Positions 39,101 to 63,529 of a stretch of 64,000 bases of DNA are shown here, piece after piece (the stretch's first letter is position 1; the number at the start of each line of letters is the position of its first letter). The stretch lies in the IMG/VR virus record IMGVR_UViG_3300047272_000250, positions 40,394 through 104,393 of that record. The stretch is one strand, 5' to 3'. Both the position numbers and the translations under genes were made by a program. The DNA comes from a virus (lineage: Duplodnaviria > Caudoviricetes). The notes beneath the pieces are model-generated. The model saw only the letters and a program-made list of their open reading frames with translations. It did not search any database and was not told where the DNA came from.

Positions 39101-39486
39101 TGGCAATGTACACATATTTTACTAAAATCGATAAGGTCGTCGATGGAGATACGTGTGACGTATTTATCGACCTAGGATTTAATGTCTGGCATAAGGAAAG
39201 AATTCGTATGGCTGGAATTGATACGGCTGAAAAGAATACAGCCTTTGGAAAAGCTACTAAGAAATTACTAGTAGATACCATGGAAGGTAAGCTTGTAAAG
39301 CTTGTAGTTTCTAAGCCCGACAAATACGGCAGATACCTTGGCTATATCTATCTAGGGTCAGAAGTATCAATTAATGACCAAATGATCTCTAAGGGCCTTG
39401 CAAAGCCTTATGGCGGGGATTCTAAAGTTGGTCTATGGACTGAACAAGAGTTAGCTATAGATCATATAAGCGTTACTCTTCAATAG
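39100..39486 (+). CDS. Thermonuclease (SNase) family protein
   Basis: VVDGDT, RIRMAGIDTAE, DKYGRYLG. Confidence 0.9.
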   Translation: MAMYTYFTKIDKVVDGDTCDVFIDLGFNVWHKERIRMAGIDTAEKNTAFGKATKKLLVDTMEGKLVKLVVSKPDKYGRYLGYIYLGSEVSINDQMISKGLAKPYGGDSKVGLWTEQELAIDHISVTLQ

Positions 39487-39737
39487 GGGATATATCGCTA
39501 TATGTTTGAAGAGCTTCAAGAAGCTCTTTGGCTATCCCGTCGAAATCAATAGTTCCGTTATTAAAGTATTTTCCAGATTGGATACACTTTTGTAGTGTAT
39601 TTGCAATGTATTTTTGTTTATCCATACATATCACCTCTAATACAGTATAACAAATAATCAGTATTAGTACAAATACTATATATGCCCTGTTTATTTATAT
39701 ATTATAGAAATGTTAATAAAATTTTAAATTTGACTAG

Positions 39738-39812
39738 TAGGGATACTTGGATTTGAACCAAGAGTAGATTGCATATAAGACAATTGCTTTAACCAGATTA
39801 AGCTATATCCCC
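39738..39812 (-). tRNA. tRNA-Ile(UAU)
   Basis: Cloverleaf GGGGATA/TATCCCT; anticodon arm ATTGT-CTTATAT-GCAAT; T arm CTTGG-TTCAAAT-CCAAG. Confidence 0.85.
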
Positions 39813-40125
39813 TCGAATTTAGAGAGTGTATATTACTAGCGAGTAATATATAGCTAATATAGAGATCATAGATATTATAAATTTATTCTTATTATTCATT
39901 GTCTTTATCTCTTTTCTAATACTGAACTTCCAGATTTTTTGCATACAAACCCTATACCCTTTTAAGAAAAAACTTAAAAGATCCCCGAAATTGTCAGGTT
40001 ATAAATCCGCAATTCATCGGTTGAACCATAGTGGCCATGTAGCTTATCTGAAAGTAACACTTCCGTCATTTAGCACTTGGAGTTTAAACCCTTGATATTA
40101 TCTCCTAAAACTGTCCAAGGTTAAA

Positions 40126-40155
40126 ATTGTAACAGCAAAGAATTTTCTATGTCAA
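40126..40155 (-). promoter_or_regulatory. Leftward housekeeping-sigma promoter
   Basis: TTGACA-N18-TACAAT with TGT immediately before the -10. Confidence 0.65.
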
Positions 40156-40223
40156 CCCCGCCTGGTCCAAATTCATAAAAATGTTAACAAATTTCGTTTT
40201 TGTATCATTCGTCTTTTTTAAAA

Positions 40224-40239
40224 TCGAACAGGCGTTCGA
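40224..40239. promoter_or_regulatory. LexA (SOS) box, actinobacterial type
   Basis: TCGAAC-AGGC-GTTCGA, a perfect consensus match. Confidence 0.75.
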
Positions 40240-40308
40240 ATAGCGAGCACAGATGTGGGCTAAATCACATAGATAAATGTCCGAATTGTCCGTGTTGGTG
40301 CTTGAATT

Positions 40309-40330
40309 TGTCAGTCCCCTGTGTTATAGT
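40309..40330 (+). promoter_or_regulatory. RecA-NDp/PafBC-type promoter 1
   Basis: TGTCAG-TCCCCTGTGT-TATAGT. Confidence 0.8.
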
Positions 40331-40377
40331 TCTACTATAAGAAATTAGCAAATAGCTAATAAAGAAAGGAATTCAAA

Positions 40378-40590
40378 ATGAATTCACTAAATACACTAAC
40401 AGTAGTAGTAGAACCTAGCCACTCAATGGCTTCATCTAACACTAAGAATAATAATATCTTCCGCCTTGCTAATGGTAACTACATTAGCCGTATGGCTTAT
40501 GTTTATATGGTAGCCTCTGAGAATATGGTTTCTCACCGCTACCTAACACCTAACGAAAGTCGTTGGGTATTCGCTAATCGTGTGGCGTAA
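40378..40590 (+). CDS. Hypothetical early protein
   Basis: GAAAGGA RBS downstream of promoter 1. Confidence 0.75.
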   Translation: MNSLNTLTVVVEPSHSMASSNTKNNNIFRLANGNYISRMAYVYMVASENMVSHRYLTPNESRWVFANRVA

Positions 40591-40669
40591 CTCACACGAT
40601 AATAACTTGACTTTATCCAATCTAATCAATTAAACTTATACCATAACAAAAAGAATAGGAAATAAATAA

Positions 40670-40837
40670 ATGACAATAACTTACTCAATCTGGCAGGGTT
40701 CCCGCCTTCTATCAATCGACAATATCGCTAACGATATTAAAGAAATTGACCACTTAATGAATTCGCTAAATGCTAGCGACTTAGGCAAGAAAGTTAAATT
40801 CTCTGCCAACGTTCAAGGAATTAAGGTAACTAAGTAA
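40670..40837 (+). CDS. Small hypothetical protein (55 aa)
   Basis: MTITYSIWQGSRLL...; TAGGA RBS; below the track length cut-off. Confidence 0.65.
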   Translation: MTITYSIWQGSRLLSIDNIANDIKEIDHLMNSLNASDLGKKVKFSANVQGIKVTK

Positions 40838-41005
40838 ATGGGTTACGTTGAATTCTTTCGCCTTGATACTGATGGGGCTGGCTGGGTAGATTTATCTAAT
40901 GCCCGCCCTAGCGAATTGCTTGACCTAGAAATAGGGCTTGAGTTAGAGGGTAGCCCTGTGCTACCATTAAACGGAACTTTATTCTCTACACCTGAGAATA
41001 ACTAG
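40838..41005 (+). CDS. Small hypothetical protein (55 aa)
   Basis: MGYVEFFRLDTDGAGWVDL...; abuts the previous stop. Confidence 0.6.
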   Translation: MGYVEFFRLDTDGAGWVDLSNARPSELLDLEIGLELEGSPVLPLNGTLFSTPENN

Positions 41006-41195
41006 AAGAATAGGAAATAAAATAAATGGAAATAACATTAGAACTATCTAAATGGGGCTTTGGTCTTTACTCTCCTTGGTTTGGTATTGACCTAACTTGG
41101 GGCTTTATTATCACCGCTGGAATTGTTACCCTCGCTGTTAAGTTTCTTAATAAGCGTGGTTTATATTTCTCTAATAAGTTTAGAAAGGTTAAGTA

Positions 41196-41381
41196 ATGAT
41201 GACACGCAAGGACTACGTTAAAACCGCCGCAATTCTAAAAACACATTTTGAAAATAACCCGCAACTTTCTCAAGAAGTCTTCGAGGATTTAGTTGATGAA
41301 TTTTCTTTAATGTTTGAAGAAGATAACGAAAGATTTGACTCTGATAAATTTTTAGAGGCTTGTCTTCCTGATTTAGAATAA
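41196..41381 (+). CDS. Hypothetical early protein
   Basis: MTRKDY...DNERFDSDKFLEAC; GAAAGG RBS. Confidence 0.75.
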   Translation: MMTRKDYVKTAAILKTHFENNPQLSQEVFEDLVDEFSLMFEEDNERFDSDKFLEACLPDLE

Positions 41382-41402
41382 AAAAAATAAATAAATAAAA
41401 TT

Positions 41403-41430
41403 GCTGCGACGATCTCGCAGCTTTTTTATT
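41403..41430 (+). terminator. Intrinsic terminator
   Basis: GCTGCGA-CGATC-TCGCAGC-TTTTTT. Confidence 0.75.
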
Positions 41431-41509
41431 TTATAAATAAAAAAATAAATAGTTGAAATTTCAACTAAAAGCGGGCCACCCCGCTGTCGGGCGTGTCTGT
41501 TAAGAAACT

Positions 41510-41518
41510 TGTGGATAA
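41510..41518 (-). promoter_or_regulatory. DnaA box
   Basis: TGTGGATAA, the reverse complement of TTATCCACA. Confidence 0.65.
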
Positions 41519-41530
41519 CCCCTGAAAAAA

Positions 41531-41546
41531 TGTGATGTGATTCACA
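41531..41546. promoter_or_regulatory. CRP-family site
   Basis: TGTGA-TGTGAT-TCACA. Confidence 0.7.
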
Positions 41547-41585
41547 TTTCAAAATGTCCGATTTGTGGCATTACTGGTCAGTAGA

Positions 41586-41607
41586 TGTCAGACCCCCCTG
41601 CTATACT
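41586..41607 (+). promoter_or_regulatory. RecA-NDp/PafBC-type promoter 2
   Basis: TGTCAG-ACCCCCCTGC-TATACT. Confidence 0.8.
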
Positions 41608-41656
41608 TCTAGGTATAGAAAGTTGAGAAAGGTTCTCAAACTAGAAAGGAATTCAA

Positions 41657-41839
41657 ATGAATTCAAATGTAATAATCGAAGTATGTAAAACACATACACC
41701 TAATAAGTCTGCTAAGTCATTCCATAATGACACATGCTACACATTCTGCGAAGTTTGTGAAAACAATATCGAATCATGGTACATGGACTATGATTCAGAC
41801 CGCTTAAGCGGTTGGTCTTCATGGAAGGTTTCTAACTAA
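41657..41839 (+). CDS. Small Cys/His hypothetical protein
   Basis: GAAAGGA RBS; CKTH, CEVC. Confidence 0.7.
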   Translation: MNSNVIIEVCKTHTPNKSAKSFHNDTCYTFCEVCENNIESWYMDYDSDRLSGWSSWKVSN

Positions 41840-42303
41840 TGAATAAATTAAAAAATCAGATAGATGAAAATGAATTCTATCAAATCGTTGATGAAATGTT
41901 CTATTGCTGTGATGAGTCACAGTTTAGACACTATTGCAAAAAGCATACCGAACTAATGGGTTGCTACTATTGCGAATTTGACTATACACAAGAATGTGAG
42001 TGTAAATAAATGAAAGATTTATTTTGTAAAGGTTGCGATGAATTCGTAATTGAAATGTCCGAAGAGGAATCAGAATTTATTTCCGTCCTCTGCTCTAATT
42101 GTTGGGAGATATAAAATGGAAAAAGATATTTTTGGTTTTGCAGATGCAATTCAATTAGACCATTTAACAAAAGAAGAGTTAGAAGAAATTGCAATCATGT
42201 TAGGAATTAAAGAATGAATTTTTATCAAACGTTTTTCGTAAGCGGTAATGCATTGTTTTGGTTTTCAATGATCAATTTATTTATTGGTTTTTATTTATTT
42301 GTA

Positions 42304-42341
42304 AAAGAATAAATATGCAGAGCTTTGCATAAAAATGCGGG
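42304..42341. promoter_or_regulatory. Tandem ARG (ArgR)-like boxes
   Basis: AAAGAATAAATATGCAGA-gc-TTTGCATAAAAATGCGGG. Confidence 0.55.
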
Positions 42342-42398
42342 GCACCACGCATTCGGGCGTGTTGCAATTAAGACACGCCGATAAAACCCCATAAAATT

Positions 42399-42447
42399 TG
42401 TGAGATCGAACACAGTGTGATGTAGAACACATGTGACCTACACCACA
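42399..42447. promoter_or_regulatory. Three tandem CRP-like sites
   Basis: TGTGA-N6-ACACA, TGTGA-N6-ACACA, TGTGA-N6-CCACA. Confidence 0.55.
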
Positions 42448-42480
42448 AAGTCCCAAATGTCCGATTTATACCCCTCAAAA

Positions 42481-42502
42481 TGTCAGACCCCTCTGCTAGA
42501 AT
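42481..42502 (+). promoter_or_regulatory. RecA-NDp/PafBC-type promoter 3
   Basis: TGTCAG-ACCCCTCTGC-TAGAAT. Confidence 0.8.
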
Positions 42503-42733
42503 ACTATGTATAAAGATTAAAAAAGAAAGGTGGTCAAAATGACTACATTAACAGAAACTCTATTCAGCACTATCGTGCATGACTTTCACAATGGGGGAGT
42601 AAAATCCTCTTATGGGCTAGATGCCTACACACGCAAGGAAATCCTTGCTTATCTCTTACGCTCTAAAGGCTGTAATTGTATAAAATGTCTGTGATGTAAA
42701 TCACCCCGACACTTTGGGGAAAATCCCCCAAAA

Positions 42734-42755
42734 TGTCAGACCCCCATGCTAGAAT
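42734..42755 (+). promoter_or_regulatory. RecA-NDp/PafBC-type promoter 4
   Basis: TGTCAG-ACCCCCATGC-TAGAAT. Confidence 0.8.
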
Positions 42756-42787
42756 TGCTACCATAAACAAAAAGAAAGAAGGACAAA

Positions 42788-42991
42788 ATGTCAGCAAATG
42801 TTTATTCAGTTGAAAGCCTCTTAGTAGGTCAGGAATACTTTTCTAAGAGTGTTCGTGGAAAAATCGTAAGTGCAGAAAAGCACCCCCATGCAGTATGGTA
42901 TGAAGGTTGCGAAAGTTACCTTGTTGAAATCCGCCCGCAGTATGGAATTAAAAATACATACCGCACAATTGCCGTTAAGACTTCTAACTAA
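42788..42991 (+). CDS. Small beta-rich hypothetical protein
   Basis: GAAGGA RBS downstream of promoter 4. Confidence 0.75.
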   Translation: MSANVYSVESLLVGQEYFSKSVRGKIVSAEKHPHAVWYEGCESYLVEIRPQYGIKNTYRTIAVKTSN

Positions 42992-43601
42992 GAAAAGAGA
43001 AAAAATGATAAACGCAACAATTACAACTTACTCAGGCGATAAGAAAGTTATCCCTTTTCAAAATCGTGAAGCCGTTCAGAAATTCATTCAAGAATTACCT
43101 AAGCGACTTTCTAAAAACACTTCCGTATTCTTTGAGTGCGATATCTTTTCAATTTCAGGAACAATCAGAGGAGAAAAATAAATGGGACAATTAAAAGAAA
43201 TTATTGCCGTTGCTTGTGATGAGTGCGGTGGTGCAGGATTTTTATTTTGGGGCGATGAAAATAACTATGATGTAGAAACTTGTAATTGCGAATTTGATGA
43301 AACGGAGTTAATTTAATGTTGATGACTAATGGAGATTTACTAGCAATTATTATTGCGCTACTAGGTTTAACTGTTGCACTTGCTTATCAGTTTATTTTTA
43401 TCCGCCGACTAACGGAAGAAAATGAAATGCTATGGGAAAAACTAACTGATTTAATTAAAGAAAAAAATAAATAAATGGAAATTTTATTTTTAATCGGGAT
43501 GATCGTCGGCGCTGCATTTTTTATTCTTGCAGCTGTCGGTGATATCTTTTTTTAGTTGAACTTTCAACTAATTTAGACACGCCCGAGCGAGGCAGGCCGC
43601 C

Positions 43602-43622
43602 TGTGGATAACTCTGTGGATTA
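43602..43622 (-). promoter_or_regulatory. DnaA box pair
   Basis: TGTGGATAA-ctc-TGTGGATTA. Confidence 0.65.
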
Positions 43623-43629
43623 AGTACGA

Positions 43630-43645
43630 TGTGATTTTTCTCACA
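43630..43645. promoter_or_regulatory. CRP-family site
   Basis: TGTGA-TTTTTC-TCACA. Confidence 0.7.
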
Positions 43646-43682
43646 AAATTATTTACGACTTACCGACGGGTAGCCTAAAAAA

Positions 43683-43704
43683 TGTCAGTAAAGTCTGATA
43701 GACT
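43683..43704 (+). promoter_or_regulatory. RecA-NDp/PafBC-type promoter 5
   Basis: TGTCAG-TAAAGTCTGA-TAGACT. Confidence 0.8.
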
Positions 43705-43797
43705 TGTATTATTCACAACACGAAAGGGAAACTATGAACCTCGATGAATTCAAGGCACACGTTATCGCACAACGTGAAGCAAGCAAGGCAGAAGCCT

Positions 43798-43819
43798 TGT
43801 CAGTCCTATCCACTACAAT
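43798..43819 (+). promoter_or_regulatory. RecA-NDp/PafBC-type promoter 6
   Basis: TGTCAG-TCCTATCCAC-TACAAT. Confidence 0.75.
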
Positions 43820-43846
43820 TAAAGAAAAGAAAGAAGGTAAATAATA

Positions 43847-44062
43847 ATGGACTATCTCTACTCAGTTACTTGCACTTATGACGGAGACCGCTCACCACAT
43901 TGGGTTGGTCGCTATGACAACGCTATCGACGCAGTTAATTCTTGGAATAAGTTTGTTGATTGGGGTATGGCTAACGAATACTCTACAATAAATTTCTCAG
44001 AGCCTAATGGCAAAATGCACACAAAGATTTTTTATCGTAATGGAAATGTAGGTGGTAAGTAA
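43847..44062 (+). CDS. Hypothetical early protein
   Basis: GAAGG RBS; translationally coupled chain. Confidence 0.75.
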   Translation: MDYLYSVTCTYDGDRSPHWVGRYDNAIDAVNSWNKFVDWGMANEYSTINFSEPNGKMHTKIFYRNGNVGGK

Positions 44063-44268
44063 TGGTAGAACTAAAGCACTCGCTTAATTTTGTAAGCGAA
44101 ATAGATGAAACCTCTCGACTAGGTAAAATGCTAATTAGCCTGCCTGCGGATAAGCAAAAGGCTATGCTCGAAGATGCGTTAAAGGATGCAATTCTTCCTA
44201 CGCTACTTCCTGAACTTGAAAGAATTAACGAAGGTGCCTCATGGGCAATACTAAAGGTGGTTAAATAA
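44062..44268 (+). CDS. Hypothetical early protein
   Basis: TAATG coupling. Confidence 0.7.
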   Translation: MVELKHSLNFVSEIDETSRLGKMLISLPADKQKAMLEDALKDAILPTLLPELERINEGASWAILKVVK

Positions 44269-44543
44269 TGGGAAGCAATATGGCATATGACCTAGCAAGC
44301 GATGAACTAGGATTAGATTTGGAAGTGGCTATTGCTATGCACTTGCAGTCTAATCACTACCCGCCCGTTCCTACTTCGATGGTAGAACCTTGCATCGAAG
44401 CAATTGACGCATACTATGAAGAGGACTACAACAGAGCAATTCCTATGCCTGAAGGCGTATTCTATAAGGGAATGAAAACTGCACCAGCCTCAGCAATAAT
44501 CGAGCAACACCACTTATCAGCGTGGCTACCAGAGGAGTATTAA
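44268..44543 (+). CDS. Hypothetical early protein
   Basis: TAATG coupling; HLQSNHYPPVP, HHL.AWL. Confidence 0.75.
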   Translation: MGSNMAYDLASDELGLDLEVAIAMHLQSNHYPPVPTSMVEPCIEAIDAYYEEDYNRAIPMPEGVFYKGMKTAPASAIIEQHHLSAWLPEEY

Positions 44544-44691
44544 AATGGAAAACGAAAAAGTAAAACGTGTGCAGGAGTTGCGTCGCAGTAATGCTGCGAC
44601 TGCAATTCCGTCTAAGAAAAAATATAAAAGAAAAACTAAAAATAAAAAAGAAAAAATATTGCAATACTACAGCGATCTAGTATCACCATTC

Positions 44692-44729
44692 TTTAAATAA
44701 ATATGCAAAGCTCTGCATAAATATGCGGG
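44692..44729. promoter_or_regulatory. Tandem ARG (ArgR)-like boxes
   Basis: TTTAAATAAATATGCAAA-gc-TCTGCATAAATATGCGGG. Confidence 0.55.
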
Positions 44730-44765
44730 GCACCCCGCAGTCGGGCGTGTCTCTATTAAGGACAC

Positions 44766-44781
44766 TGTGATTTTTCTCACA
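44766..44781. promoter_or_regulatory. CRP-family site
   Basis: TGTGA-TTTTTC-TCACA. Confidence 0.7.
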
Positions 44782-44808
44782 AAATTTAGGGCGGATCTGA
44801 TTTGGAAA

Positions 44809-44830
44809 TGTCAGTCTAATTTGATAGTAT
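44809..44830 (+). promoter_or_regulatory. RecA-NDp/PafBC-type promoter 7
   Basis: TGTCAG-TCTAATTTGA-TAGTAT. Confidence 0.8.
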
Positions 44831-44858
44831 TAATATACCCGTTAAGAAAGGTCAACTC

Positions 44859-45581
44859 ATGACAAAATTAAAACGCTCTAATGATAGAAAGGTGGCTAAC
44901 CTTGTCACAAAAAACGGAAAGCAAGCAGCAATCGCTAACACATTCGGCCTACCTGCTGGAAAGAATTTCTCGTGCCCTGGTGCCACTAGTATTTGTGAAA
45001 GCGTATGCTACGCAGGCAAGCTTGAAAAGTTATTCAAGGGAGTAAAAACTAATCTCCTGCACAATTGGGACCTATTGAAGAATGCGGACCTGCAGGAAAT
45101 GTATACTCTTCTCTCAGAAATGGTTGCAGAATTTAAAGCTGAATGCGTTAAGAAAGACGCACCTATGCTATTCCGTATCCACTGGGACGGAGATTTCTTT
45201 AATGAAGACTACACACGTGCATGGCGCCTAGTAATTGAAGAACAGCCAGACATTCAATTTTGGGTTTACACTCGTGTAAAGTCTGCAGCACTCATCCTTA
45301 AGGATATCGAAAACTTATCTCTATATTATTCAACCGATGATGAGAATCTTCCAATTGCGACGGACCTAAAGCAAAACAGTGGTGTACGTCTTGCATACCT
45401 AGGTAAGACTTTCGCATTAACAGAAACTAAGATGAAAGAAATTACAGGAAAAGTTGGTGCACGGTGCCCTGAAAATAATAAATCAATTCCATTAATTTCT
45501 AGCAATGGGTCCGCATGCGTTTCTTGTGGTCTCTGCGTATACGGTAAGGCTGACATTAGATTTTCTGCAACGAAAAAATAA
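44859..45581 (+). CDS. GP88-like Fe-S/radical-SAM-related protein
   Basis: SCPGATSICESVCYA, FRIHWDGDFF, FWVYTR, C-terminal CP...CVSCGLC. Confidence 0.7.
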   Translation: MTKLKRSNDRKVANLVTKNGKQAAIANTFGLPAGKNFSCPGATSICESVCYAGKLEKLFKGVKTNLLHNWDLLKNADLQEMYTLLSEMVAEFKAECVKKDAPMLFRIHWDGDFFNEDYTRAWRLVIEEQPDIQFWVYTRVKSAALILKDIENLSLYYSTDDENLPIATDLKQNSGVRLAYLGKTFALTETKMKEITGKVGARCPENNKSIPLISSNGSACVSCGLCVYGKADIRFSATKK

Positions 45582-45737
45582 AATGATATATCTGATCATA
45601 CTTACTACGGTGGGAGTACTTGCCACTCCCGCCGTAGTTATCTCTTTACTTTATAATTCTGTAAATAAAAATTATAAAAAAGATTTTTAAAAGATGCGGC
45701 CCAGCTCGCTACTGGTGAGTATGTCAAATTACGGGCG

Positions 45738-45753
45738 TGTGATTTTTCTCACA
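45738..45753. promoter_or_regulatory. CRP-family site
   Basis: TGTGA-TTTTTC-TCACA. Confidence 0.7.
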
Positions 45754-45812
45754 CGATTTTACGGGGACAATTCGGACATTTTAACCATAATTAGGTATGT
45801 TCGATTAGTAAT

Positions 45813-45834
45813 TGTCAGTCAGGTCGTGTAGAAT
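45813..45834 (+). promoter_or_regulatory. RecA-NDp/PafBC-type promoter 8
   Basis: TGTCAG-TCAGGTCGTG-TAGAAT. Confidence 0.8.
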
Positions 45835-45864
45835 TATATTATCAAACAAACGAAAGGAAGCACA

Positions 45865-46014
45865 ATGACAACAACTCCAAAAATCGGGGAAACCTTCACA
45901 ACTGCTAAGTCTGGTGTATCAGGCAAGGTTGAGGAAGTAGTCAAGAACGCAAATGGCTCTTTGCGTGTTCGCCTCAATGTTGAGGGAACAGAACGCTGGA
46001 CAACAATCAAGTAA
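45865..46014 (+). CDS. 49-aa SH3/KOW-like protein
   Basis: MTTTPKIGETFTTAKSGVSGKVEEV...; GAAAGGA RBS; paralog of 46575-46757. Confidence 0.75.
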   Translation: MTTTPKIGETFTTAKSGVSGKVEEVVKNANGSLRVRLNVEGTERWTTIK

Positions 46015-46036
46015 GAAGGTTGGGGCTACTGGTAAA

Positions 46037-46058
46037 TGTCAGTAGCCCCTGCTACACT
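46037..46058 (+). promoter_or_regulatory. RecA-NDp/PafBC-type promoter 9
   Basis: TGTCAG-TAGCCCCTGC-TACACT. Confidence 0.8.
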
Positions 46059-46095
46059 TAAATATAACAACCCAAATAGAAAAGGAATAAATGCT

Positions 46096-46497
46096 ATGGC
46101 AAGAGCAATCTCAGTAAAGGTGGCAACACCAAAGGTAATCAAGGCTTTGGAAGCAAAGTTGGCAGATAGCAAGAGCGCAATCACCAACAATGAAAAGAAG
46201 CGTAAGGAATACGAGAAAACAGAAAAGGCTTGGGCTAAGGAAGTTGCAGACCTAGTATTCAAGCACATCTCAAAGGCAGAAGTTTCTGCACATGAGAACT
46301 ATCGTAATGAACTCAATGTAAATCTCACACTTCCAGCAGGAACAATCAAGTTGCCTGAGAAGCCTTCTATCGAACTTGAAAATGAACTTGGTCGCTATGA
46401 AGTTCAGGAAATCGAGAACGCAATTCGTATTCTCAAAATGACAGATGAGGACACAGTTAATGCCTCAACTTTCAAGTCAATCGCACAATATCTATAA
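46096..46497 (+). CDS. Hypothetical coiled-coil early protein (start MARAISVK)
   Basis: AAAGGA RBS before 46096; the track start lies inside the promoter. Confidence 0.75.
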   Translation: MARAISVKVATPKVIKALEAKLADSKSAITNNEKKRKEYEKTEKAWAKEVADLVFKHISKAEVSAHENYRNELNVNLTLPAGTIKLPEKPSIELENELGRYEVQEIENAIRILKMTDEDTVNASTFKSIAQYL

Positions 46498-46574
46498 TTC
46501 CCAATAGGGAACTCAACCTGAGCAAGTTGGAAAACTGCTCAACCAACCCACATAAAGAAAAGGAAAATAAATAA

Positions 46575-46757
46575 ATGGCACCAATTACAAATACAACAAC
46601 AGGTCGTTTCTATAAGAAGGGCGACACTTTCACAACAGGTAAGTCAGGAATTACTGGCGCAATCACAGAAATTATTTCTGTCCGTCCTAATCTAACTAAG
46701 TTAGGTTTGCAAACAGAAAATGGTTTGCGTTGGGCTATGGTAAAAATCGGCGCATAA
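46575..46757 (+). CDS. Small SH3/KOW-like protein
   Basis: GDTFTTGKSGITGAITEI; paralog of 45865-46014. Confidence 0.75.
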   Translation: MAPITNTTTGRFYKKGDTFTTGKSGITGAITEIISVRPNLTKLGLQTENGLRWAMVKIGA

Positions 46758-46760
46758 CTT

Positions 46761-46849
46761 TCATCGGGGGATGAATAACTACACGCAACACTAAGTGTAG
46801 TTGGGAGTCTAGGTTACCTTTCTTTCCTAGGCTCCCGCAAACCCGATGA
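46761..46849 (+). ncRNA. Candidate three-way-junction RNA with anti-Shine-Dalgarno loop
   Basis: Three stems of 8, 8 and 11 bp; loop TTACCTTTCTTT. Confidence 0.55.
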
Positions 46850-46856
46850 TCGTAGC

Positions 46857-46877
46857 TTATCCACAAAGTTATCCACA
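46857..46877 (+). promoter_or_regulatory. DnaA box pair
   Basis: TTATCCACA-aag-TTATCCACA. Confidence 0.72.
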
Positions 46878-46953
46878 GGCGCCCTGGGTCGCAAATTCGG
46901 ACATTTACGACATTAAGGAAAAATGCCTGAGATTGCCAGAATAATTAGACAGA

Positions 46954-46975
46954 TGTCACCCCAGTCTGCTAGACT
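46954..46975 (+). promoter_or_regulatory. RecA-NDp/PafBC-type promoter 10
   Basis: TGTCAC-CCCAGTCTGC-TAGACT. Confidence 0.75.
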
Positions 46976-47005
46976 TAATATATCAACCTAACGAAAGAAG
47001 GAATC

Positions 47006-48019
47006 ATGGCTCACAACCTAGAAGAACAAAATGGTCAAGTTGCTTTTGCATTACGTGGAAAGCCTGCTTGGCACAATCTCGCTAACAAAATTTTCGGCGA
47101 CGAAGAAATTGTTACAACACAGTCAATGCTTTCAGAAGCAAAACTTTCTAATTGGAATGTCCGCTTAGAAGCAATGGCAGACCACACGCCTGAATCTTAT
47201 CGTGATTCATCTGGCGCTCAATTAGTTCTTCGCACAAATCCATTTGACAATGGCACTGACGTGCTTTCTGTTGTCGGTTCTCGATACAAGGTAGTGCAGA
47301 ATGAAGAATTGTTTGCGTTTGCAGATAACATTCTTGACGGCGACGAATCTTGCAAGTGGGAATCTGCGGGTTCTCTAAAGAAGGGCAAAGTTGTATTCGG
47401 CTCTCTTACAGTTCCCCGCACAATGGTTCTTGACCCACAAGGTGCTAACGATGAGACAAAACTCTATCTAATCGTTTGGACATCACACGATGGTTCTGTT
47501 GCTGTTCAGGCTGCGATTACACCTGTTCGTGTAGTTTGCCAAAACACCCTTAACCTTGCAATGCGTAATGCAAAGCAATCTTTCAAGATTCGCCACACAC
47601 AGACAGCAGAAGGCAAAATTGTTGCTGCTCGTGAGGCTCTTGGTTTGACTTTCGCTTATGCTGATGAGTTTGAGAAGGAAATGCAAGCCCTTTTCAATGC
47701 GAAGATTACTGACAAGAAGTTTTCGCAAATCATCAACACACTTTACCCAAAGCCTGAGAAGGATTCTAAGGGTTCTCTAAAGAAGTGGGAGAACAAGGTT
47801 GTTCTCATTGACGAGTTGTATCACAACTCACCAACTAACGCTAACATCAAGGGCACAGCGTGGGGTGCGCTTAACGCTATGACTGAGCGCCTTGATTACT
47901 ATCGCACAGCCCGCACAGGTAATGGCGAATCTCTTATGTCTTCTGCTTCTGGTTTTGACCCAGTAATTACAGCAGAAAAAAATAAGTTAGCAAAACAAAT
48001 CTTGGCTCTGGCTAAGTAA
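47006..48019 (+). CDS. DUF932-family protein
   Basis: MAHNLE..PAWH, YKVVQNEELF, SHDGS, TPVRVVCQNTL, GTAWGALNAMTE. Confidence 0.85.
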   Translation: MAHNLEEQNGQVAFALRGKPAWHNLANKIFGDEEIVTTQSMLSEAKLSNWNVRLEAMADHTPESYRDSSGAQLVLRTNPFDNGTDVLSVVGSRYKVVQNEELFAFADNILDGDESCKWESAGSLKKGKVVFGSLTVPRTMVLDPQGANDETKLYLIVWTSHDGSVAVQAAITPVRVVCQNTLNLAMRNAKQSFKIRHTQTAEGKIVAAREALGLTFAYADEFEKEMQALFNAKITDKKFSQIINTLYPKPEKDSKGSLKKWENKVVLIDELYHNSPTNANIKGTAWGALNAMTERLDYYRTARTGNGESLMSSASGFDPVITAEKNKLAKQILALAK

Positions 48020-48025
48020 TAGGAG

Positions 48026-48050
48026 AGGGGGGCGAAAGCCCCCCTTTTTT
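48026..48050 (+). terminator. Intrinsic terminator
   Basis: AGGGGGGC-GAAA-GCCCCCCT-TTTTT. Confidence 0.85.
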
Positions 48051-48100
48051 ATTTGATCATTTTTTGATTTGACAAATCCAGCTTGATCGGGATGGGTCGC

Positions 48101-48116
48101 TGTGATTTTTCTCACA
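48101..48116. promoter_or_regulatory. CRP-family site
   Basis: TGTGA-TTTTTC-TCACA. Confidence 0.7.
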
Positions 48117-48153
48117 TTAAGTACGATAAGAAAAATCCCCCAGGATTTGTGGA

Positions 48154-48175
48154 TGTCAGTCGTTTTTGCTATAGT
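48154..48175 (+). promoter_or_regulatory. RecA-NDp/PafBC-type promoter 11 (leaderless whiB)
   Basis: TGTCAG-TCGTTTTTGC-TATAGT-N6-ATG. Confidence 0.8.
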
Positions 48176-48181
48176 TAATGT

Positions 48182-48397
48182 ATGACAGAAGAAAACCATT
48201 GGCAGTTTAAAGTAGCATGTGCTCCACAGGATTTTGATTTATTCTTTAGCAACGCAAAAGGTAAGCGGGCTCAGGCATTAGCCATATGTGGTAAATGCCC
48301 AGTCTCAAATGAATGTTTAAACCATGCGATAGAGAATAATGTAGAGCACGGGATATTCGGAGGAAAGACACCTGAACAGAGAAGGAAGATGAAATGA
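48182..48397 (+). CDS. whiB: WhiB-family transcription factor
   Basis: W...AC...FF...ICGKCPV..EC..A...GIFGG.T..QR. Confidence 0.92.
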   Translation: MTEENHWQFKVACAPQDFDLFFSNAKGKRAQALAICGKCPVSNECLNHAIENNVEHGIFGGKTPEQRRKMK

Positions 48398-48714
48398 ATA
48401 CCATTAATGAATTAATTAATGAAATCTATGAAGACAATTACTCACATCTAGAGTTTGAAGAGAATATGGGTGGGCTAGATTGTGATTGTAATATCCATAT
48501 GGTGCTGAATACTATTGCTACATACGCAGGAATCGAGGTTGGATAATGCTAGGTTATACTAAAGAGGATTTAGATCAAATGGCTAACTCTATTCATGACG
48601 CCAAGTTGTTCTATATACTAAATTCAGATGTCATTAAGGTTGATGAGGACCCTATTGTTGATGGCTTACTGAAAGCCCACGACTTTTTACAGGGACTATG
48701 GGCGGAGGGATATT

Positions 48715-48948
48715 TTGACTAAATCATCTCATTTCATAGAATATATGAAGTTACATGAGATTAGTCTATTACAAGATGCTGAAAAGCTTCAAGACCTTAT
48801 GAGTAATTATGAATATAACTACGATTCAGATGAATATAGAGAGTTAGAGATTGCTGATTATCATAATACTGGAGAACTAATTGCAACCCGCCACCTTTTG
48901 TCAGTGGCAACTGATATAATGAATTCCTCTAACGAAAGGTATGAATAA
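48715..48948 (+). CDS. Hypothetical early protein
   Basis: TTG start with GGAGG RBS; coupled to the next gene. Confidence 0.65.
   Translation: MTKSSHFIEYMKLHEISLLQDAEKLQDLMSNYEYNYDSDEYRELEIADYHNTGELIATRHLLSVATDIMNSSNERYE
48899..48920 (+). promoter_or_regulatory. RecA-NDp/PafBC-type promoter 12 (inside a CDS)
   Basis: TGTCAG-TGGCAACTGA-TATAAT. Confidence 0.78.
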
Positions 48949-49211
48949 TGGAAACTACTACTCTCCCGCCTCATCTGCAGCGAATGGTCAATGCAGGTGT
49001 CTCAGGACTAGACATCATGCATGGAGAACTAAAGAATCTAATGCTCATTGCTGAGCGGGACCTAGATATGGCTATCAAGGCTGAGGAAGAATCAGAAGAG
49101 GCTATGGATTCTATGGAACGCACACGTTGTGAGGGGGTTGTAGATACTCTCGTAGACCTGTACAATTTAACTTACCAACTATCATTTGCTATAGGAGATA
49201 AGAATGCTTGA
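48948..49211 (+). CDS. Hypothetical early protein
   Basis: GAAAGG RBS. Confidence 0.72.
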   Translation: METTTLPPHLQRMVNAGVSGLDIMHGELKNLMLIAERDLDMAIKAEEESEEAMDSMERTRCEGVVDTLVDLYNLTYQLSFAIGDKNA

Positions 49212-49524
49212 AGCAGAACGTCAGTCTCGTGTCCATAATACTCTTAAGGATATGTATAAACAACTAACCGAACTAGAGGTCTTCCCTTCTTTAGTTTGGA
49301 CTTGGACCTATGACATTATCAGGTCCTTTGAAAACGACTCTGATTACAAATTCTTGATGACAGAAGAACAGTGGTTTGATTTACTCTGGAACAACGTTGA
49401 TAAAGCAAACTTCTCATTAACTTACGGGGACGAGCAAATATATGAAGACATTCGTGATTGGTTGCTTGATAATGATGTTATGGTGGATGTGTTGGCAGGT
49501 GAAGAAGATTCGGGAGATGAATAA
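49204..49524 (+). CDS. Acidic hypothetical protein
   Basis: AGGAG RBS. Confidence 0.7.
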   Translation: MLEAERQSRVHNTLKDMYKQLTELEVFPSLVWTWTYDIIRSFENDSDYKFLMTEEQWFDLLWNNVDKANFSLTYGDEQIYEDIRDWLLDNDVMVDVLAGEEDSGDE

Positions 49525-49778
49525 TGAATAACTGTGATCAATGCTTCTATGGCACTTACACTTACTATAATGGTATGGATGAGAAACAAGAAATAGATTG
49601 TCCCTTCTGTGCTACCCGTGTTCCTAGTAATTGGAGACGTATGACAGAAGATCAAAAATCAACTTGGTTGAAATTAATTCCCAATCCAGATAAATAGCTG
49701 GTGCGGTTCCAGTCGCTGTCAATTTGTCGACATTAAGTACGATTTGTAAAATCCCCCAGAATCCTGTAGTATTAAGAC

Positions 49779-49970
49779 ATGACTGAAACTACCATGGAAT
49801 ATGTATTAAAAGTTGAAGATAGATGTGACAAGTGTCAGGCTCAGGCATTATACTTATGTAAGGGTGTATCTGGAGAGCTGATGTTTTGCCGCCACCACTT
49901 TAATGAAAACCAGGAATCACTAACCAATTGGGCTTACGAGATCGTAGACGAGTCCCAAAAAATATCCTAA
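49779..49970 (+). CDS. Small zinc-finger protein (leaderless)
   Basis: DRCDKCQAQA...GELMFCRHH; TTGTAA-N17-TAGTAT-N6-ATG. Confidence 0.75.
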   Translation: MTETTMEYVLKVEDRCDKCQAQALYLCKGVSGELMFCRHHFNENQESLTNWAYEIVDESQKIS

Positions 49971-50052
49971 ATAATTCCTATTTGGAATTGACAAATGCCC
50001 TGAGAATCAGGGATAATTAATATATCGGAAAACATATGGTGGGAGGTGTAAT

Positions 50053-50175
50053 ATGACAAAGCGTGAATATCTAGTATCTCTTGGACAAACTGTTGGTAAG
50101 CGAGGACGTTTCTCTAAGGAGCAAGTAGAACTTCTGAAGCAAGCAGAAGCCAAAGGTCAATCCTTTACAAAGTAA
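50053..50175 (+). CDS. Mini Lsr2-like protein (DNA-binding domain only, 40 aa)
   Basis: MTKREYLVSLGQTVGKRGRFSKEQVELL; GGAGG RBS; hairpin downstream. Confidence 0.7.
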   Translation: MTKREYLVSLGQTVGKRGRFSKEQVELLKQAEAKGQSFTK

Positions 50176-50241
50176 TTAAAAGGGAGGGGAGTTAAATCCC
50201 CTCCCACTAAATCCCTATAAGCACTCACAGAAGGAAGAACA

Positions 50242-51009
50242 ATGCCAAATTGGGTATACAACACATTAACAATTCAAGGTCCTAAGTCTGAGATTGATGC
50301 AATCAAAGATAGATTAAATAAGCCTTTTACACTGGCTCAAGAAACATACGGAATGGGTGACATTAGTTCATCAGGATTCCCGACCAAACTTACACAGGTT
50401 AGTTATTCTAATCCTGTCTTTGCATTCTTCAACATCCACTCATATAAGGATGAAGGTATTACTGACGAAGAGTATGCCTGTCAGCCAAAGCGTGATGGTG
50501 TAGATATGAAGGACCCTAATTGGTTTGCTAAGTCTGTTGAGTTTGCTAAAACTCAGAAGGATTGGTATTCATGGAATAATTCTAATTGGGGCACTAAATG
50601 GGATGTAGCAGTTCGTGATGAGGACGAGTATCCCAATACAGAACTAATTGAACATAAGTCAGAGGGCGAAGACCAATGGCTTGTCTACAAGTATGAAACT
50701 GCTTGGTCACCTGCCGTAACAATCTTAACTAAACTATCTAACTTAGTTCCTAACTCCGTGCTCACATTAGAGTATGAGGAGGAAACAGGTTGGGGAGGCG
50801 AGTATGAGATTATCCGTGGTGAAGTCAGAGAACTCATGGAGTATGAGAATCGTTGCTATGCCTGCCAATCTTTTGACTGTGTAGAGTATTGCGAGAACGA
50901 CTGTGGTGAGTTCTGCTCTAACTGTAATCAGGGCTCATGGCAGGACGAAAGTGCTATGGCAGAATGCGAAGAGCACAAGGTCTTACTCAAAGAGGAGGTG
51001 GAGGCATGA
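50242..51009 (+). CDS. DUF1281/YubB-like ferredoxin-fold protein with C-terminal Cys cluster
   Basis: MPNWVYN, DWYSWNNSNWGTKWD, YETAWSP. Confidence 0.72.
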   Translation: MPNWVYNTLTIQGPKSEIDAIKDRLNKPFTLAQETYGMGDISSSGFPTKLTQVSYSNPVFAFFNIHSYKDEGITDEEYACQPKRDGVDMKDPNWFAKSVEFAKTQKDWYSWNNSNWGTKWDVAVRDEDEYPNTELIEHKSEGEDQWLVYKYETAWSPAVTILTKLSNLVPNSVLTLEYEEETGWGGEYEIIRGEVRELMEYENRCYACQSFDCVEYCENDCGEFCSNCNQGSWQDESAMAECEEHKVLLKEEVEA

Positions 51010-51665
51010 AAAACAAATCATGGACAAAGTACACCTTTGCCTGTGATCCTGAAGAATGTGATACTTTAATTGAAGTAACATGTGATGACTATGGATTCCC
51101 ACTAGGTGTGATGCAAATCACATGTCCGTGTGGGCGCAAGCTTGACATCTTGTCAGTGGCCAATGCTACAATTGAATCAACTACTACAGAAGGAAACCAT
51201 ATGGAAACAACATCAACAATCGGCTCAGATGCATTGCACTCACCTGCAGTGGAGTACAACCCTAATCAATTAGTTACATATAAGGTCCTAAGTGGATACT
51301 CAGACCCTGAGTATAAAACGGACAAGGTAACATCCCTGGAATGGGACCTGCACAACGGACGTCAGTCACAAAAGCGTGTGGGCCTACTAGAATCAAACAT
51401 TAATTCAGTTAAAGAAATCATTACTGAATCATATGCTGAGTCAGAAGACCAAGAAACTTTGCGTTCAATCGCAGAGGCTTTGGGCATTGAACTAACCCGT
51501 ACAATCGAATGGAGCGCTACAATTGAGGTTAGCGGTACCATGGAAGTAGACCTCCTAGAGGACGTCGACATCGAGCAGGAAATCTATGACAATCTTTACG
51601 TAGATTCTCAGAATGGCAATATCGAAATCGGGGACACCGAAGTTTGTAACGCACACGAGTGCTAA
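51006..51665 (+). CDS. Hypothetical protein, with probable internal in-frame start at 51201
   Basis: GGAGG RBS before 51006; promoter 13 and GAAGGA RBS before 51201. Confidence 0.65.
   Translation: MKNKSWTKYTFACDPEECDTLIEVTCDDYGFPLGVMQITCPCGRKLDILSVANATIESTTTEGNHMETTSTIGSDALHSPAVEYNPNQLVTYKVLSGYSDPEYKTDKVTSLEWDLHNGRQSQKRVGLLESNINSVKEIITESYAESEDQETLRSIAEALGIELTRTIEWSATIEVSGTMEVDLLEDVDIEQEIYDNLYVDSQNGNIEIGDTEVCNAHEC
51151..51172 (+). promoter_or_regulatory. RecA-NDp/PafBC-type promoter 13 (inside a CDS)
   Basis: TGTCAG-TGGCCAATGC-TACAAT. Confidence 0.78.
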
Positions 51666-51738
51666 TCTAACATAGGGAGAGGTGGGGGGTTCTTGCCAGC
51701 CCCCCACCCAATATGATATTATCAAATAGACGAAAGGT

Positions 51739-52044
51739 GTGTGTATGGCTATCGGAGATAAGGATATTGACGAAAGCAAGTTAGCAGGACTAATCGAAGA
51801 TAGTCTTTCAGATGTGCGTTTTGACAAGATGAACTTTGCTTGGCATATGGGAAATAAATCTCCTCGTATCCAAAGAGAGTTTTGGGAATTGACTTATGCG
51901 TTTATTCAGGAAATGGCAGATTACTACAAGCGAGGCTTGGTAGATACTAAGCACTTAGCCGTAGCCCAAATGTGCTATGAAGTCAAGACCTTTATGGAAG
52001 GCGACTATGACAAAGACCAACTAGCCCTTGATTTAGGGCTCTAG
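51739..52044 (+). CDS. Hypothetical protein
   Basis: GAAAGG RBS; true start probably the ATG at 51745. Confidence 0.7.
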   Translation: MCMAIGDKDIDESKLAGLIEDSLSDVRFDKMNFAWHMGNKSPRIQREFWELTYAFIQEMADYYKRGLVDTKHLAVAQMCYEVKTFMEGDYDKDQLALDLGL

Positions 52045-52070
52045 GCAGCTCAGGTGATCGAGTTGACGGG

Positions 52071-52092
52071 TGTCAGTGGGACAGGCTATACT
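52071..52092 (+). promoter_or_regulatory. RecA-NDp/PafBC-type promoter 14 (leaderless gene)
   Basis: TGTCAG-TGGGACAGGC-TATACT-N6-ATG. Confidence 0.8.
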
Positions 52093-52098
52093 TAATAT

Positions 52099-52317
52099 AT
52101 GGAAATCTACGAAGAATACCCAGAAGGCGCTAGTGGAGAACGTTGGTCTGACCTATGTGAATACATAGAGGCAGTAACCAAAGAAGGCTCTACTATAAAA
52201 GAAATCATTGCTGAGAACCTACCTGAAATGCAGGGCAAGGACTACTCTCAACCTTTATCGTTTGATAACGACGAAGTTTGGGCTATACTAAAATGGTTAA
52301 ATAGAGACGGAGAATAG
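52099..52317 (+). CDS. Hypothetical protein (leaderless)
   Basis: ATG 6 nt after the -10. Confidence 0.7.
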   Translation: MEIYEEYPEGASGERWSDLCEYIEAVTKEGSTIKEIIAENLPEMQGKDYSQPLSFDNDEVWAILKWLNRDGE

Positions 52318-52318
52318 T

Positions 52319-52669
52319 GTGGGAGCAAGAACTAATTTCGTAATTAAGACAACCGAGAATGAGAATGAGAACATAGTTCTTTATTCACATTGGGGTGGGG
52401 ATAGCGGCGTACAGGATTTTGCGTGGGCTATTCAAAAGGCAATGCCACGTTATGGTGATACATCATACTTCACACGTATCTTAGTTTCATCATTGATTAA
52501 CGACCAATGGGATTCAGAAACGGGATTCGGTTTATATGTTGGACCCGTTACTCACGAAGAATCATACGAGTATAAAGAAATAGATTTAGTTAATGGTACT
52601 GTAACAATTGGCGACCATACTACATCAATCAAAGCATTCCTTGAATATCATCAAGGAGCTAGTGTCTAA
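52319..52669 (+). CDS. Conserved phage hypothetical protein
   Basis: MGARTNF...LYSHWGG; last gene of the island. Confidence 0.7.
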   Translation: MGARTNFVIKTTENENENIVLYSHWGGDSGVQDFAWAIQKAMPRYGDTSYFTRILVSSLINDQWDSETGFGLYVGPVTHEESYEYKEIDLVNGTVTIGDHTTSIKAFLEYHQGASV

Positions 52670-52914
52670 TTAAATAGACAACCCTTATCCCTGGACCTTC
52701 TGCCAGGGATAGGCGGGGTGAATCGCAAATAAAAATTACCCATTACGACGATGATCATAAATTCCCAGAATTTCCTTGACATTCATTATAGCTATAGGTA
52801 TAATCCATAGATCTATGTCGCAATATATCTAATTAGACATTACGACGAATGCAATAAATTCCCAGAATTTCTGGATAATTGCATAATGTCTACAAGGTTA
52901 TGTAGACTTATATA

Positions 52915-53058
52915 TTATCCTTTCTTCTGTGTTCTATTAACTCTCTTTACAGGAATAGACTTCTTATTCTTTCCCGCCTTCTGATCTCTTTTAAATTTAC
53001 TATTCTGAGCTGGCCCACGGCCAGCGGCGGAATCAGAAGTAACTACATTATTACTCAT
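52915..53058 (-). CDS. Small basic protein (47 aa)
   Basis: GGAGG RBS; MSNNVVTSDSAAGRGPAQNSKFKRDQKAGKNKK... Confidence 0.55.
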   Translation of the reverse strand: MSNNVVTSDSAAGRGPAQNSKFKRDQKAGKNKKSIPVKRVNRTQKKG

Positions 53059-53221
53059 ATATAAACCTCCCTATATACATAGTATATAACACTTGTAGAA
53101 ATATATCCATATTTTGTACATATTTAGATCAATATTAATATAAATATACATTATTATGATAGATTTATCTAACTTTATGATCAATTTTGTACCAATTTTG
53201 CCCTATTTTTATAGGGTTTTA

Positions 53222-53260
53222 TAGCCAAATATATCTCATATATTGAGATATATTTGGCTA
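53222..53260. repeat. Perfect 17-bp inverted repeat
   Basis: TAGCCAAATATATCTCA-TATAT-TGAGATATATTTGGCTA. Confidence 0.9.
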
Positions 53261-53996
53261 ATTATTGACAAGATCGATATGTCCATTATGTCCGATATGA
53301 GATATATCATCATATGAGATTATATGGAAAAGTATTGACATTACGATCCCTTTATGATAGGCGTTCAAATACCCATATATAATAACTATATACAACTAAT
53401 ACTGAATATATCATAATGTGCCCTGTATATGGGAATATTCACCACTTTACTCCACTATACTCCACATAGCCTAAAAAGCCTTACAAGGCTGATACAAGGC
53501 AGAAAAGGGAGGGGATAAGGAACTTTCCCTTGAAGCTATATCCTTGGCCTTAAAAGGCCTTATTGATAGCCGTAAGCTAAATCCTCTATATGATCAATAA
53601 AGGCATTACGTCTTATAATTAATATATATGTTATATGTAGTATATCTACTCTATAGATAAGGGCTATCTTCGATCTTCCCGCCCGAAATTTAAATTTATG
53701 TCTCGTATTCAGATCGAGCTTACGAATTGTTATTCGGCGATATCCGTATTTCATTGAGTGCACCATATTGAGTAGTCGCTCATAGTCTGGTGATTATCCC
53801 AGTAATCGATATTATTTTTAGATATCCCGCATTTTTGGCAAGTTTCCCATGTGTCATGGATTGGGGTCTCACTTTTCGGCTTCACTTAGTCGCTCCTTAT
53901 AAGGTGTTATAGGGTATATATTTAATTGATCTTAAGGTGTTATAAGACCTTATTCCCATTCTATATTATTAATAGATAGCCAGTCAAGATAATAAA

Positions 53997-56748: not shown

Positions 56749-56972
56749 TCTTCCTCCATGCTGTAGTAAGTACCCCAGCGTATTGCTGGCTTGTAAAGGG
56801 CATTTGAAACCTTTGCCCACATTGATCCATTTCTTTCATCCCACATGCATTTGGTTAAAGCATGATATGCCATAACCTCACAACGATTACCAATAAATCT
56901 AAGTAGTATATTATTGGTTCTTTCGTGCTTTACCCATGTAATCTTTTTCTTAGCCATTGTTTTCCTCCTCAA
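56745..56972 (-). CDS. Hypothetical protein
   Basis: Between thyX and groES; likely start MAKKK. Confidence 0.55.
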   Translation of the reverse strand: MRRKTMAKKKITWVKHERTNNILLRFIGNRCEVMAYHALTKCMWDERNGSMWAKVSNALYKPAIRWGTYYSMEEE

Positions 56973-57651: not shown

Positions 57652-57696
57652 ATAACTATCTTACACCTATTCTCAAGTAATTTCAATGGAATTTCG

Positions 57697-57971: not shown

Positions 57972-57974
57972 AAT

Positions 57975-63515: not shown

Positions 63516-63529
63516 GTAAATCCTTTCTG

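Follow-up and report, generated by a model that had tools for sequence, protein, structure and literature searches.

We know of three ways in which lytic phages time the expression of their genes: polymerases of their own, sigma factors of their own, and proteins that remodel the host sigma factor. In the middle promoters of phage T4, a MotA box at −30 combined with a −10 element replaces the −35, a protein bridging the box to sigma region 4 as sigma is appropriated by AsiA and MotA. Other phages couple genes to the SOS response of the host through LexA boxes, examples being tum of coliphage 186 and rstA of the CTX phage. A temporal switch driven by a host activator, with counter-defence built in, is to our knowledge described for no phage. 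PafBC of actinobacteria is an activator that responds to single-stranded DNA (PMC11804915) and acts at ‘RecA-NDp’ promoters of the consensus tGTCgg(N10)tA(N3)T; these have no −35, their upstream part spans −23 to −28, and its GTC is read by the helix-turn-helix of PafB through R46 and R50 (PMC8635444). Here we describe an array of 15 sites of this form in a tailed phage (Duplodnaviria; Caudoviricetes), in a stretch of 64,000 nt (the ‘window’: bases 40394–104393 of the 104,393-bp virus record IMGVR_UViG_3300047272_000250, to which all window coordinates are relative). Sequence comparison suggests that, through these sites, the phage probably borrows the DNA-damage alarm of its host.

The pattern TGTCAS-N10-TANNNT matched 16 times in the window, whereas shuffled sequences averaged 1.65 matches and never exceeded 6 (0/100 reached 16). 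A sequence-only reading of the same DNA had listed 14 plus-strand copies, and re-scanning found every one of these at the position given, together with a 15th, at 49833, that had been overlooked. The 16th match lies on the minus strand (57539–57518) inside the thyX reading frame (56950–57651); it was rejected as a promoter, being probably a chance occurrence and not part of the system. No copies had been seen earlier in the structural module; in the whole genome, plus-strand TGTCAG-N10-TANNNT is confined to 40309–52092 of the window and only two minus-strand matches occur, both within long open reading frames. The spacer is equally restricted, as had been proposed: 14/30 plus-strand TGTCAG hexamers in the genome have TANNNT at exactly 10 nt, and no other spacing is shared by more than five hexamers. 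All 15 copies read TGTCA(G/C) and lie in a single plus-strand island, listed here with its promoter copies and a LexA box.

38738–52669, plus strand: island of about 45 small genes on the open reading frame map, holding all 15 promoter copies.
40224–40239: perfect actinobacterial LexA (SOS) box, TCGAAC-N4-GTTCGA, 70 nt upstream of copy 1.
40309–40330, plus strand: copy 1, TGTCAG-N10-TATAGT with extended TG and a TTGAAT −35-like hexamer at 17 nt; gene start at 40378.
41586–41607, plus strand: copy 2, terminator upstream at 41403–41421; gene start at 41657.
42481–42502, plus strand: copy 3, gene start at about 42530.
42734–42755, plus strand: copy 4, gene start at 42788.
43683–43704, plus strand: copy 5, ATG about 30 nt downstream.
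43798–43819, plus strand: copy 6, without TG ahead of the −10; gene start at 43847.
44809–44830, plus strand: copy 7, preceding a Gp88-family gene at 44859–45581.
45813–45834, plus strand: copy 8, terminator upstream at 45604–45638.
46037–46058, plus strand: copy 9, gene at 46096–46497.
46954–46975, plus strand: copy 10, TGTCAC variant with TAGACA at −35; DUF932 gene at 47006–48019.
48154–48175, plus strand: copy 11, terminator upstream at 48018–48053; leaderless WhiB gene at 48182–48397, ATG 6 nt past the −10.
48899–48920, plus strand: copy 12, TGTCAGTGGC...TATAAT; gene start at 48948.
49833–49854, plus strand: copy 13, without extended TG and without a clear gene behind it; doubtful.
51151–51172, plus strand: copy 14, TGTCAGTGGC...TGCTACAAT; ATG at 51201.
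52071–52092, plus strand: copy 15, leaderless gene at 52099–52317, ATG 6 nt past the −10.

The placement of the copies is that of promoters. A start codon follows at 6–60 nt in 14/15 cases (the earlier reading had placed each of its sites just ahead of a ribosome-binding site or a leaderless ATG); a GAAAGG-type ribosome-binding site accompanies 12/15, and at two sites (48154 and 52071) the ATG comes exactly 6 nt past the −10. Hairpin terminators precede several copies, and a −35-like hexamer is present in about 5/15. As predicted from these elements, each promoter would comprise a TGTCAG box at −28 to −23, a 10-nt spacer and an extended −10 of the form TGnTAnAAT, and together the promoters would split the island into about 15 short units, several of them closed by hairpin terminators.

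Conservation was examined in relatives retrieved from IMG/VR with the DUF932 protein (217 retrieved, 80 loci kept, 1.29 Mb). The motif occurred 1116 times on the gene strand of these loci compared with 25 times on the opposite strand, and enrichment was limited to the 10-nt spacer (1116 copies), other spacers from 6 to 15 nt giving between 1 and 107. The profile of 810 unique sites was AAA-TGTCAG-T-S-S-C...T-G-c-TA-t-A-A-T, with next to no information elsewhere; the fifth base of the box was A in 82% and G in 18%, the −10 consensus was TAtAAT, G stood at −14 in 79% of sites and TG at −15/−14 in most. An ATG lay 6 or 7 nt past the −10 in 79/821 unique sites (about 10%), compared with 0–8 at neighbouring offsets, and 74 of these 79 ATGs opened a reading frame of at least 40 amino acids; in most of the remaining sites a Shine-Dalgarno-like sequence began 10–25 nt downstream. 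The DUF932 ortholog was preceded by the motif in all 49 loci checked, with both boxes and the ribosome-binding site conserved and the spacer between the boxes variable. On account of the ATG offsets, the ribosome-binding sites, the conserved boxes around a variable spacer and the terminators, the sites are almost certainly real promoters. The ATG offsets point, indirectly, to a transcription start 6–7 nt past the −10, where a −10 of the SigA type predicts it, and the predicted promoter class is common to a large family of uncultured actinophages of roughly 100–120 kb. It might be supposed that copies sitting among many small units of similar size are functionless, having been left behind when cassettes duplicated or having arisen by chance; given, however, that flanks and spacers differ and conservation is limited to the box and the −10, that shuffled sequences never reach the observed count, and that the exact spacing recurs in the 1116 copies across relatives, the probability of this is negligible.

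By form, the phage sites belong to the PafBC (RecA-NDp) class, an assignment in which the sequence-only reading was right: their architecture equals that of the published promoter, with the −26 element at −23 to −28 (PMC8635444). They share with the PafBC promoters of Mycobacterium and other Actinobacteria (PMC8635444, PMC11804915, PMC6789036) the same −26 box with its invariant GTC and the same exact 10 nt to a SigA-type TAnnnT −10; no −35 is apparent in most of the phage copies; the same box also stands at recA in the candidate host clade considered below, which keeps the DNA-reading arginines of PafB-PafC. The differences concern setting and detail. Unlike PafBC promoters of hosts, the phage copies lie on a lytic-type genome, about 15 on each, and drive small unassigned genes, not repair genes; the fifth base departs from the consensus, being predominantly A rather than G; and the phage −10 is near consensus with an extended TG, a third of the copies adding a −35-like hexamer.

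The phage itself appears to supply no reader for the box. The earlier observation that the window encodes no WYL activator extends to the whole phage genome, in which neither a WYL domain nor sigma-70 region 2 was found, and no DNA-binding family besides WhiB, helix-turn-helix proteins included, was detected among the scanned proteins of the island and right arm. That the host is an actinobacterium, as proposed previously, is supported by two WhiB genes, the Gp88 and DUF932 genes and the leaderless starts. The nearest cultured relatives of the phage are Streptomyces phages of the Samistivirus type (about 60% identity in the portal, about 55% in DUF932). Candidate hosts were picked by genome features, and the class sample comprised 51 rhodopsin-bearing genomes, 23 of them single-contig genomes of 1.3–1.5 Mb; none of the conclusions draws on two unpublished genomes of the listing (G332 and G334). 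The small rhodopsin-bearing genomes appear to be of acI (Planktophila/Nanopelagicus) type, and small rhodopsin-bearing planktonic actinobacteria of this kind are the likeliest host type of the phage.

Tandem WYL frames were present in 25/27 small rhodopsin-bearing genomes. In one such pair the first protein matched Mycobacterium smegmatis PafB over its full length (145 bits) and the next matched PafC (103 bits), and the recognition stretch of the candidate-host PafB, RMFERDK, is identical to that of M. smegmatis, so that R46 and R50 are kept. Upstream of recA, [T/C]GTC[A/G]G-N10-TAnnnT was found in all 25 candidate-clade genes checked, as TGTCAG in 19. A typical recA promoter of the clade, TGTCAGTGGCgccTGcTACCTT, is near the phage consensus and has a LexA box directly after the −10, of the same type as the phage box at 40224–40239. 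Agreement between the phage sites and the host-type recA promoter extends to positions outside the search pattern, namely T at −22, G/C at −21 and −20, C at −19, and TG-C from −15 to −13. The likeliest host type encodes PafBC and bears the same TGTCAG box at recA. RecA-NDp boxes also precede recA in named genomes of Rhodococcoides, Microbacteriaceae and Acidimicrobiaceae, and one genome of the phylum sample, an anaerobe with NrdD, has PafB/PafC together with boxes before recA, an AddB-like gene and a DUF763 gene.

A loose form of the motif occurred 5–14 times per candidate genome of 1.3–1.4 Mb, compared with 4–11 for a control pattern, and since counts in low-GC genomes are not above control the size of the regulon cannot be read from them. 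Host-type genomes cluster 5–6 TGTCAG-N10-TAnnnT promoters in islands of 10–25 kb (G547:C1:418500–432500; G515:C1:399500–427000), where several stand before leaderless ATGs at +6/+7; a comparison of all phage proteins with these islands gave a single weak match.

Other approaches to the host yielded little. A nucleotide search with the island against cultured phages gave no match; the phage WhiB as a single-protein query of genome contigs found no relative, a word-based homolog search with it returned two phage-like matches only, and an alignment-based locus search recovered assorted Actinomycetota and no clear host. Ribonucleotide reductase was rejected as a host marker, its nearest Atlas clusters being viral, and neither DnaE nor RecA gave a host signal against solved structures. 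Nothing was found with the phage Hsp20 in 27 small genomes, the strict motif pattern gave seven scattered matches across 301 genomes of the phylum, and a RecA tree for placing the sampled genomes had no resolution. Small low-GC genomes of the phylum sample were also considered as representatives of the planktonic clade and were rejected, having no rhodopsin and mostly no WYL.

Information at −35 to −30 was low in the relatives (0.03–0.46 bit per position), and 63% of sites had at most 3/6 matches to TTGACA. This bears on the principal alternative, in which the sites are ordinary strong extended −10 SigA promoters, TGTCAG is a spacer element for an unrecognised phage protein, and the likeness to PafBC sites is convergent or incidental. 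Such a protein could activate the island, in the manner of MotA/AsiA in T4, or could repress it and so switch it off. Promoters of this kind would be expected to show the near-consensus −10 with TG at −15/−14 seen in most sites; most island proteins are without a known family, leaving room for a hidden DNA-binding protein; and the canonical TTGACA-N17/18-TATAAT promoters that flank the island could provide for the factor to be made first. In T4, too, the −35 is replaced by a box lying between the −35 and −10 positions, and the promoter class serves to time a block of phage genes, as proposed for the island. T4, however, brings an activator and a co-activator of its own and reshapes region 4 of sigma, whereas no phage activator was found here among the proteins scanned, small unassigned ones remaining, and the box equals the site of a host activator. 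A phage factor would need to have evolved that exact site, for the box, its distance from the −10 and the adjacent bases equal both the published motif and the recA promoter of PafBC-bearing planktonic actinobacteria; moreover, the 63% of sites mentioned above are without a −35-like hexamer, and the phage proteins scanned include no helix-turn-helix, sigma or WYL family. On balance we consider the SigA-only explanation unlikely, though serious enough to weigh.

Further points on its side come from the closest cultured relative. In the Streptomyces phage Jay2Jay (Samistivirus; L220, 1–10500), a region of the same kind as 38738–52669 of the window contains many small units and a DUF932 gene, the units having, like those of the island, a terminator hairpin, a TG-extended −10 of the TAGACT type and a strong ribosome-binding site. 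The Jay2Jay promoters differ in combining a TTGTAT-type −35, N17 and TAGACT with an upstream CCCGGACA element, and thereby drive equivalent cassettes without a TGTCAG box; a search with the longer Streptomyces-type motif string returned unrelated primers only.

Several observations weigh against a role for PafBC, or against the host type to which we assign it. Jay2Jay lacks the motif array (2 matches compared with 6 for the control), although RecA-NDp promoters are found in Streptomyces, the genus of its host (PMC5087735); the lineage does not need PafBC. In the relatives, a TTGACA match of at least 4/6 at 16–18 nt was present in 36% of sites compared with 18% in the control, and one of at least 5/6 in 18.5% compared with 3.9%; given this and the near-consensus extended −10, SigA alone may read many of the sites. 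Island DNA compared with 25 candidate host genomes gave one 30-nt match only and hence no nucleotide link. Nor do all members of the phylum have PafBC: in 21/25 other small, mostly low-GC Actinomycetota genomes no WYL was detected, and these WYL-poor genomes are without rhodopsin and have no box at recA. Finally, GC content, about 40% in the phage, is a poor guide to the host, in that the Streptomyces-phage relatives are at about 50% (53% in the first 16 kb of Jay2Jay) while their Streptomyces hosts are at about 72%.

Taking these points together, the best explanation, and in our judgement a probable one, is that host PafBC reads the phage sites, most likely boosting a basal SigA activity. The reader would most likely be the PafB-PafC heterodimer of the host, with no activator supplied by the phage. 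Once activated by single-stranded DNA, probably arising from injected or replicating phage DNA or from damage to host DNA, PafBC would take its place, in what is termed ‘sigma adaptation’, between the −26 box and region 4 of SigA, enabling the housekeeping polymerase to start without a −35. Judged by their sequence, the phage promoters appear stronger than the PafBC promoters of hosts. Their −10 boxes are near consensus, and PafBC is therefore probably a booster of these promoters rather than their sole switch; together with the −35-like hexamers, these −10 boxes imply that the promoters may depend on the activator only in part. Some basal activity is likely even in the absence of PafBC, and a boost on top of it would fit the sites equally as well as full dependence. 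The sequence-only interpretation therefore stands in part: the motif class, the phylum of the host and the lack of a phage WYL or sigma protein are supported, but its claim that most early transcription is placed under a damage sensor may overstate the dependence. It is from sequence that we infer binding by PafBC, the trigger, the early timing and the identity of the host. Early expression of the island genes, in particular, is suggested by gene content and by synteny with the terminal repeat of Streptomyces phages.

The LexA box at 40224–40239, the sole perfect copy in the phage genome, invites comparison with the SOS-coupled phages, in which phage genes are likewise wired to a host damage signal through the site of a host regulator. 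In those phages the regulator is the repressor LexA and the outcome prophage induction, whereas here a site of the activator type is repeated 15 times. The box is also about 70 nt from a divergent canonical promoter and overlaps neither promoter core; LexA-like boxes with 0–1 mismatch lie close to the first motif copies in 9/80 loci of relatives.

A different use of the array would be as a sink, 15 strong sites multiplied by replication drawing PafBC off the repair genes and islands of the host and blunting its response, with phage transcription secondary. The 15 copies in 12 kb are at least as many as were counted in a whole host-type genome, and in host-type genomes, too, the box is grouped in small islands whose genes are leaderless. 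A pure decoy, however, needs no particular placement, and the position and orientation of every copy suit it to driving a gene, the distance to a start codon or ribosome-binding site being fixed; as the main function, a sink is very improbable, while a sink role in addition to the promoter role is possible. The two may be combined in a scheme that we regard as quite doubtful, in which the single-stranded DNA alarm is used twice. PafBC would fire the approximately 15 promoters as soon as single strands became exposed at the ends of phage DNA or at replication forks; the multiplying array would then soak up PafBC, and its depletion would starve host repair genes and the small host islands with the same box. 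WhiB, made from a leaderless PafBC-type promoter, would close the programme by binding region 4 of SigA, where PafC makes use of the same surface.

If host PafBC does read the sites, a phage family appears to place a block of its genes under an activator of the host whose cue, single-stranded DNA, is a signal that the replicating phage itself creates. This would be a new way of timing phage genes, would connect phage infection with the actinobacterial damage response that is independent of LexA, and would mean that DNA damage from sunlight could alter the outcome of infection in very abundant, hard-to-culture lake bacteria. The earlier statement that phage use of PafBC promoters is undescribed agrees with the literature searched, in which no paper linking PafBC or RecA-NDp to phage promoters was found; a 2025 paper on pafBC and mycobacteriophage resistance is cited in PMC12848934.

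The island is oriented opposite to the remaining genome, almost all of whose genes are on the minus strand in arms to either side. Minus-strand genes include those for portal, protease, tail fibres, type II ribonucleotide reductase and a CHAP endolysin, and the first 40 kb of the record encode DnaE, primase, RecA and a Cas4-like nuclease. The island, whose proteins are mostly without a known family, includes the Gp88-family, DUF932 and WhiB genes listed above, and a second WhiB gene lies at 61225–61548. The scanned parts of the phage showed neither an integrase nor a repressor. Further features are as follows.

Record 11058–11825, minus strand: Cas4-like nuclease.
Record 12715–13716, minus strand: RecA.
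Record 14392–17508, minus strand: DnaE-type polymerase.
38167–38583: Hsp20 gene.
39100–39486: staphylococcal-nuclease-like gene.
56950–57651: thyX.
58982–59278: thioredoxin.

RecA, DnaE and the Cas4-like nuclease are makers or binders of single-stranded DNA, the signal for PafBC. Six tRNA genes (Ile-TAT, Trp, Leu-TAG, Gly-TCC, Arg-TCT and Asp) lie at 39737–39812, 57696–58207 and 63529–63998 (minus strand).

At only 127 bp, the ‘direct terminal repeat’ given for the record has the size of an assembler k-mer overlap, and was rejected as a true repeat, assembly overlap being more likely; the record is probably a circularised assembly rather than a genome with mapped ends. The island may be a collapsed long terminal repeat, judging by its synteny in kind with the cultured Streptomyces relatives.

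An additional element, (A)TGTCCG or its complement CGGACA, is present 20–40 nt upstream of some TGTCAG boxes, at 40277, 40287, 41554, 42457 and 51122 (plus strand) and at 45779 and 46904 (minus strand). It resembles the CCCGGACA element of Jay2Jay, and accompanies about 6.5% of sites per orientation in the relatives, compared with 1.4–1.9% expected per 90 nt.

The near-perfect canonical TTGACA-N17/18-TATAAT promoters flanking the island are at 40155, 38673, 38188, 53987 and 60201 on the minus strand and at 52776 on the plus strand. The last of these faces an AT-rich stretch of 0.9 kb without clear genes (52670–53559), which could be an origin or a physical genome end. The promoter at 60201, of the form TTGACC-N17-TATTAT, precedes a minus-strand gene (59610–60146) for a protein of 178 amino acids that resembles proteasome subunits (PF00227, E 1e-8) over its first 40 residues, a curious match given that PafBC is tied to the Pup-proteasome system.

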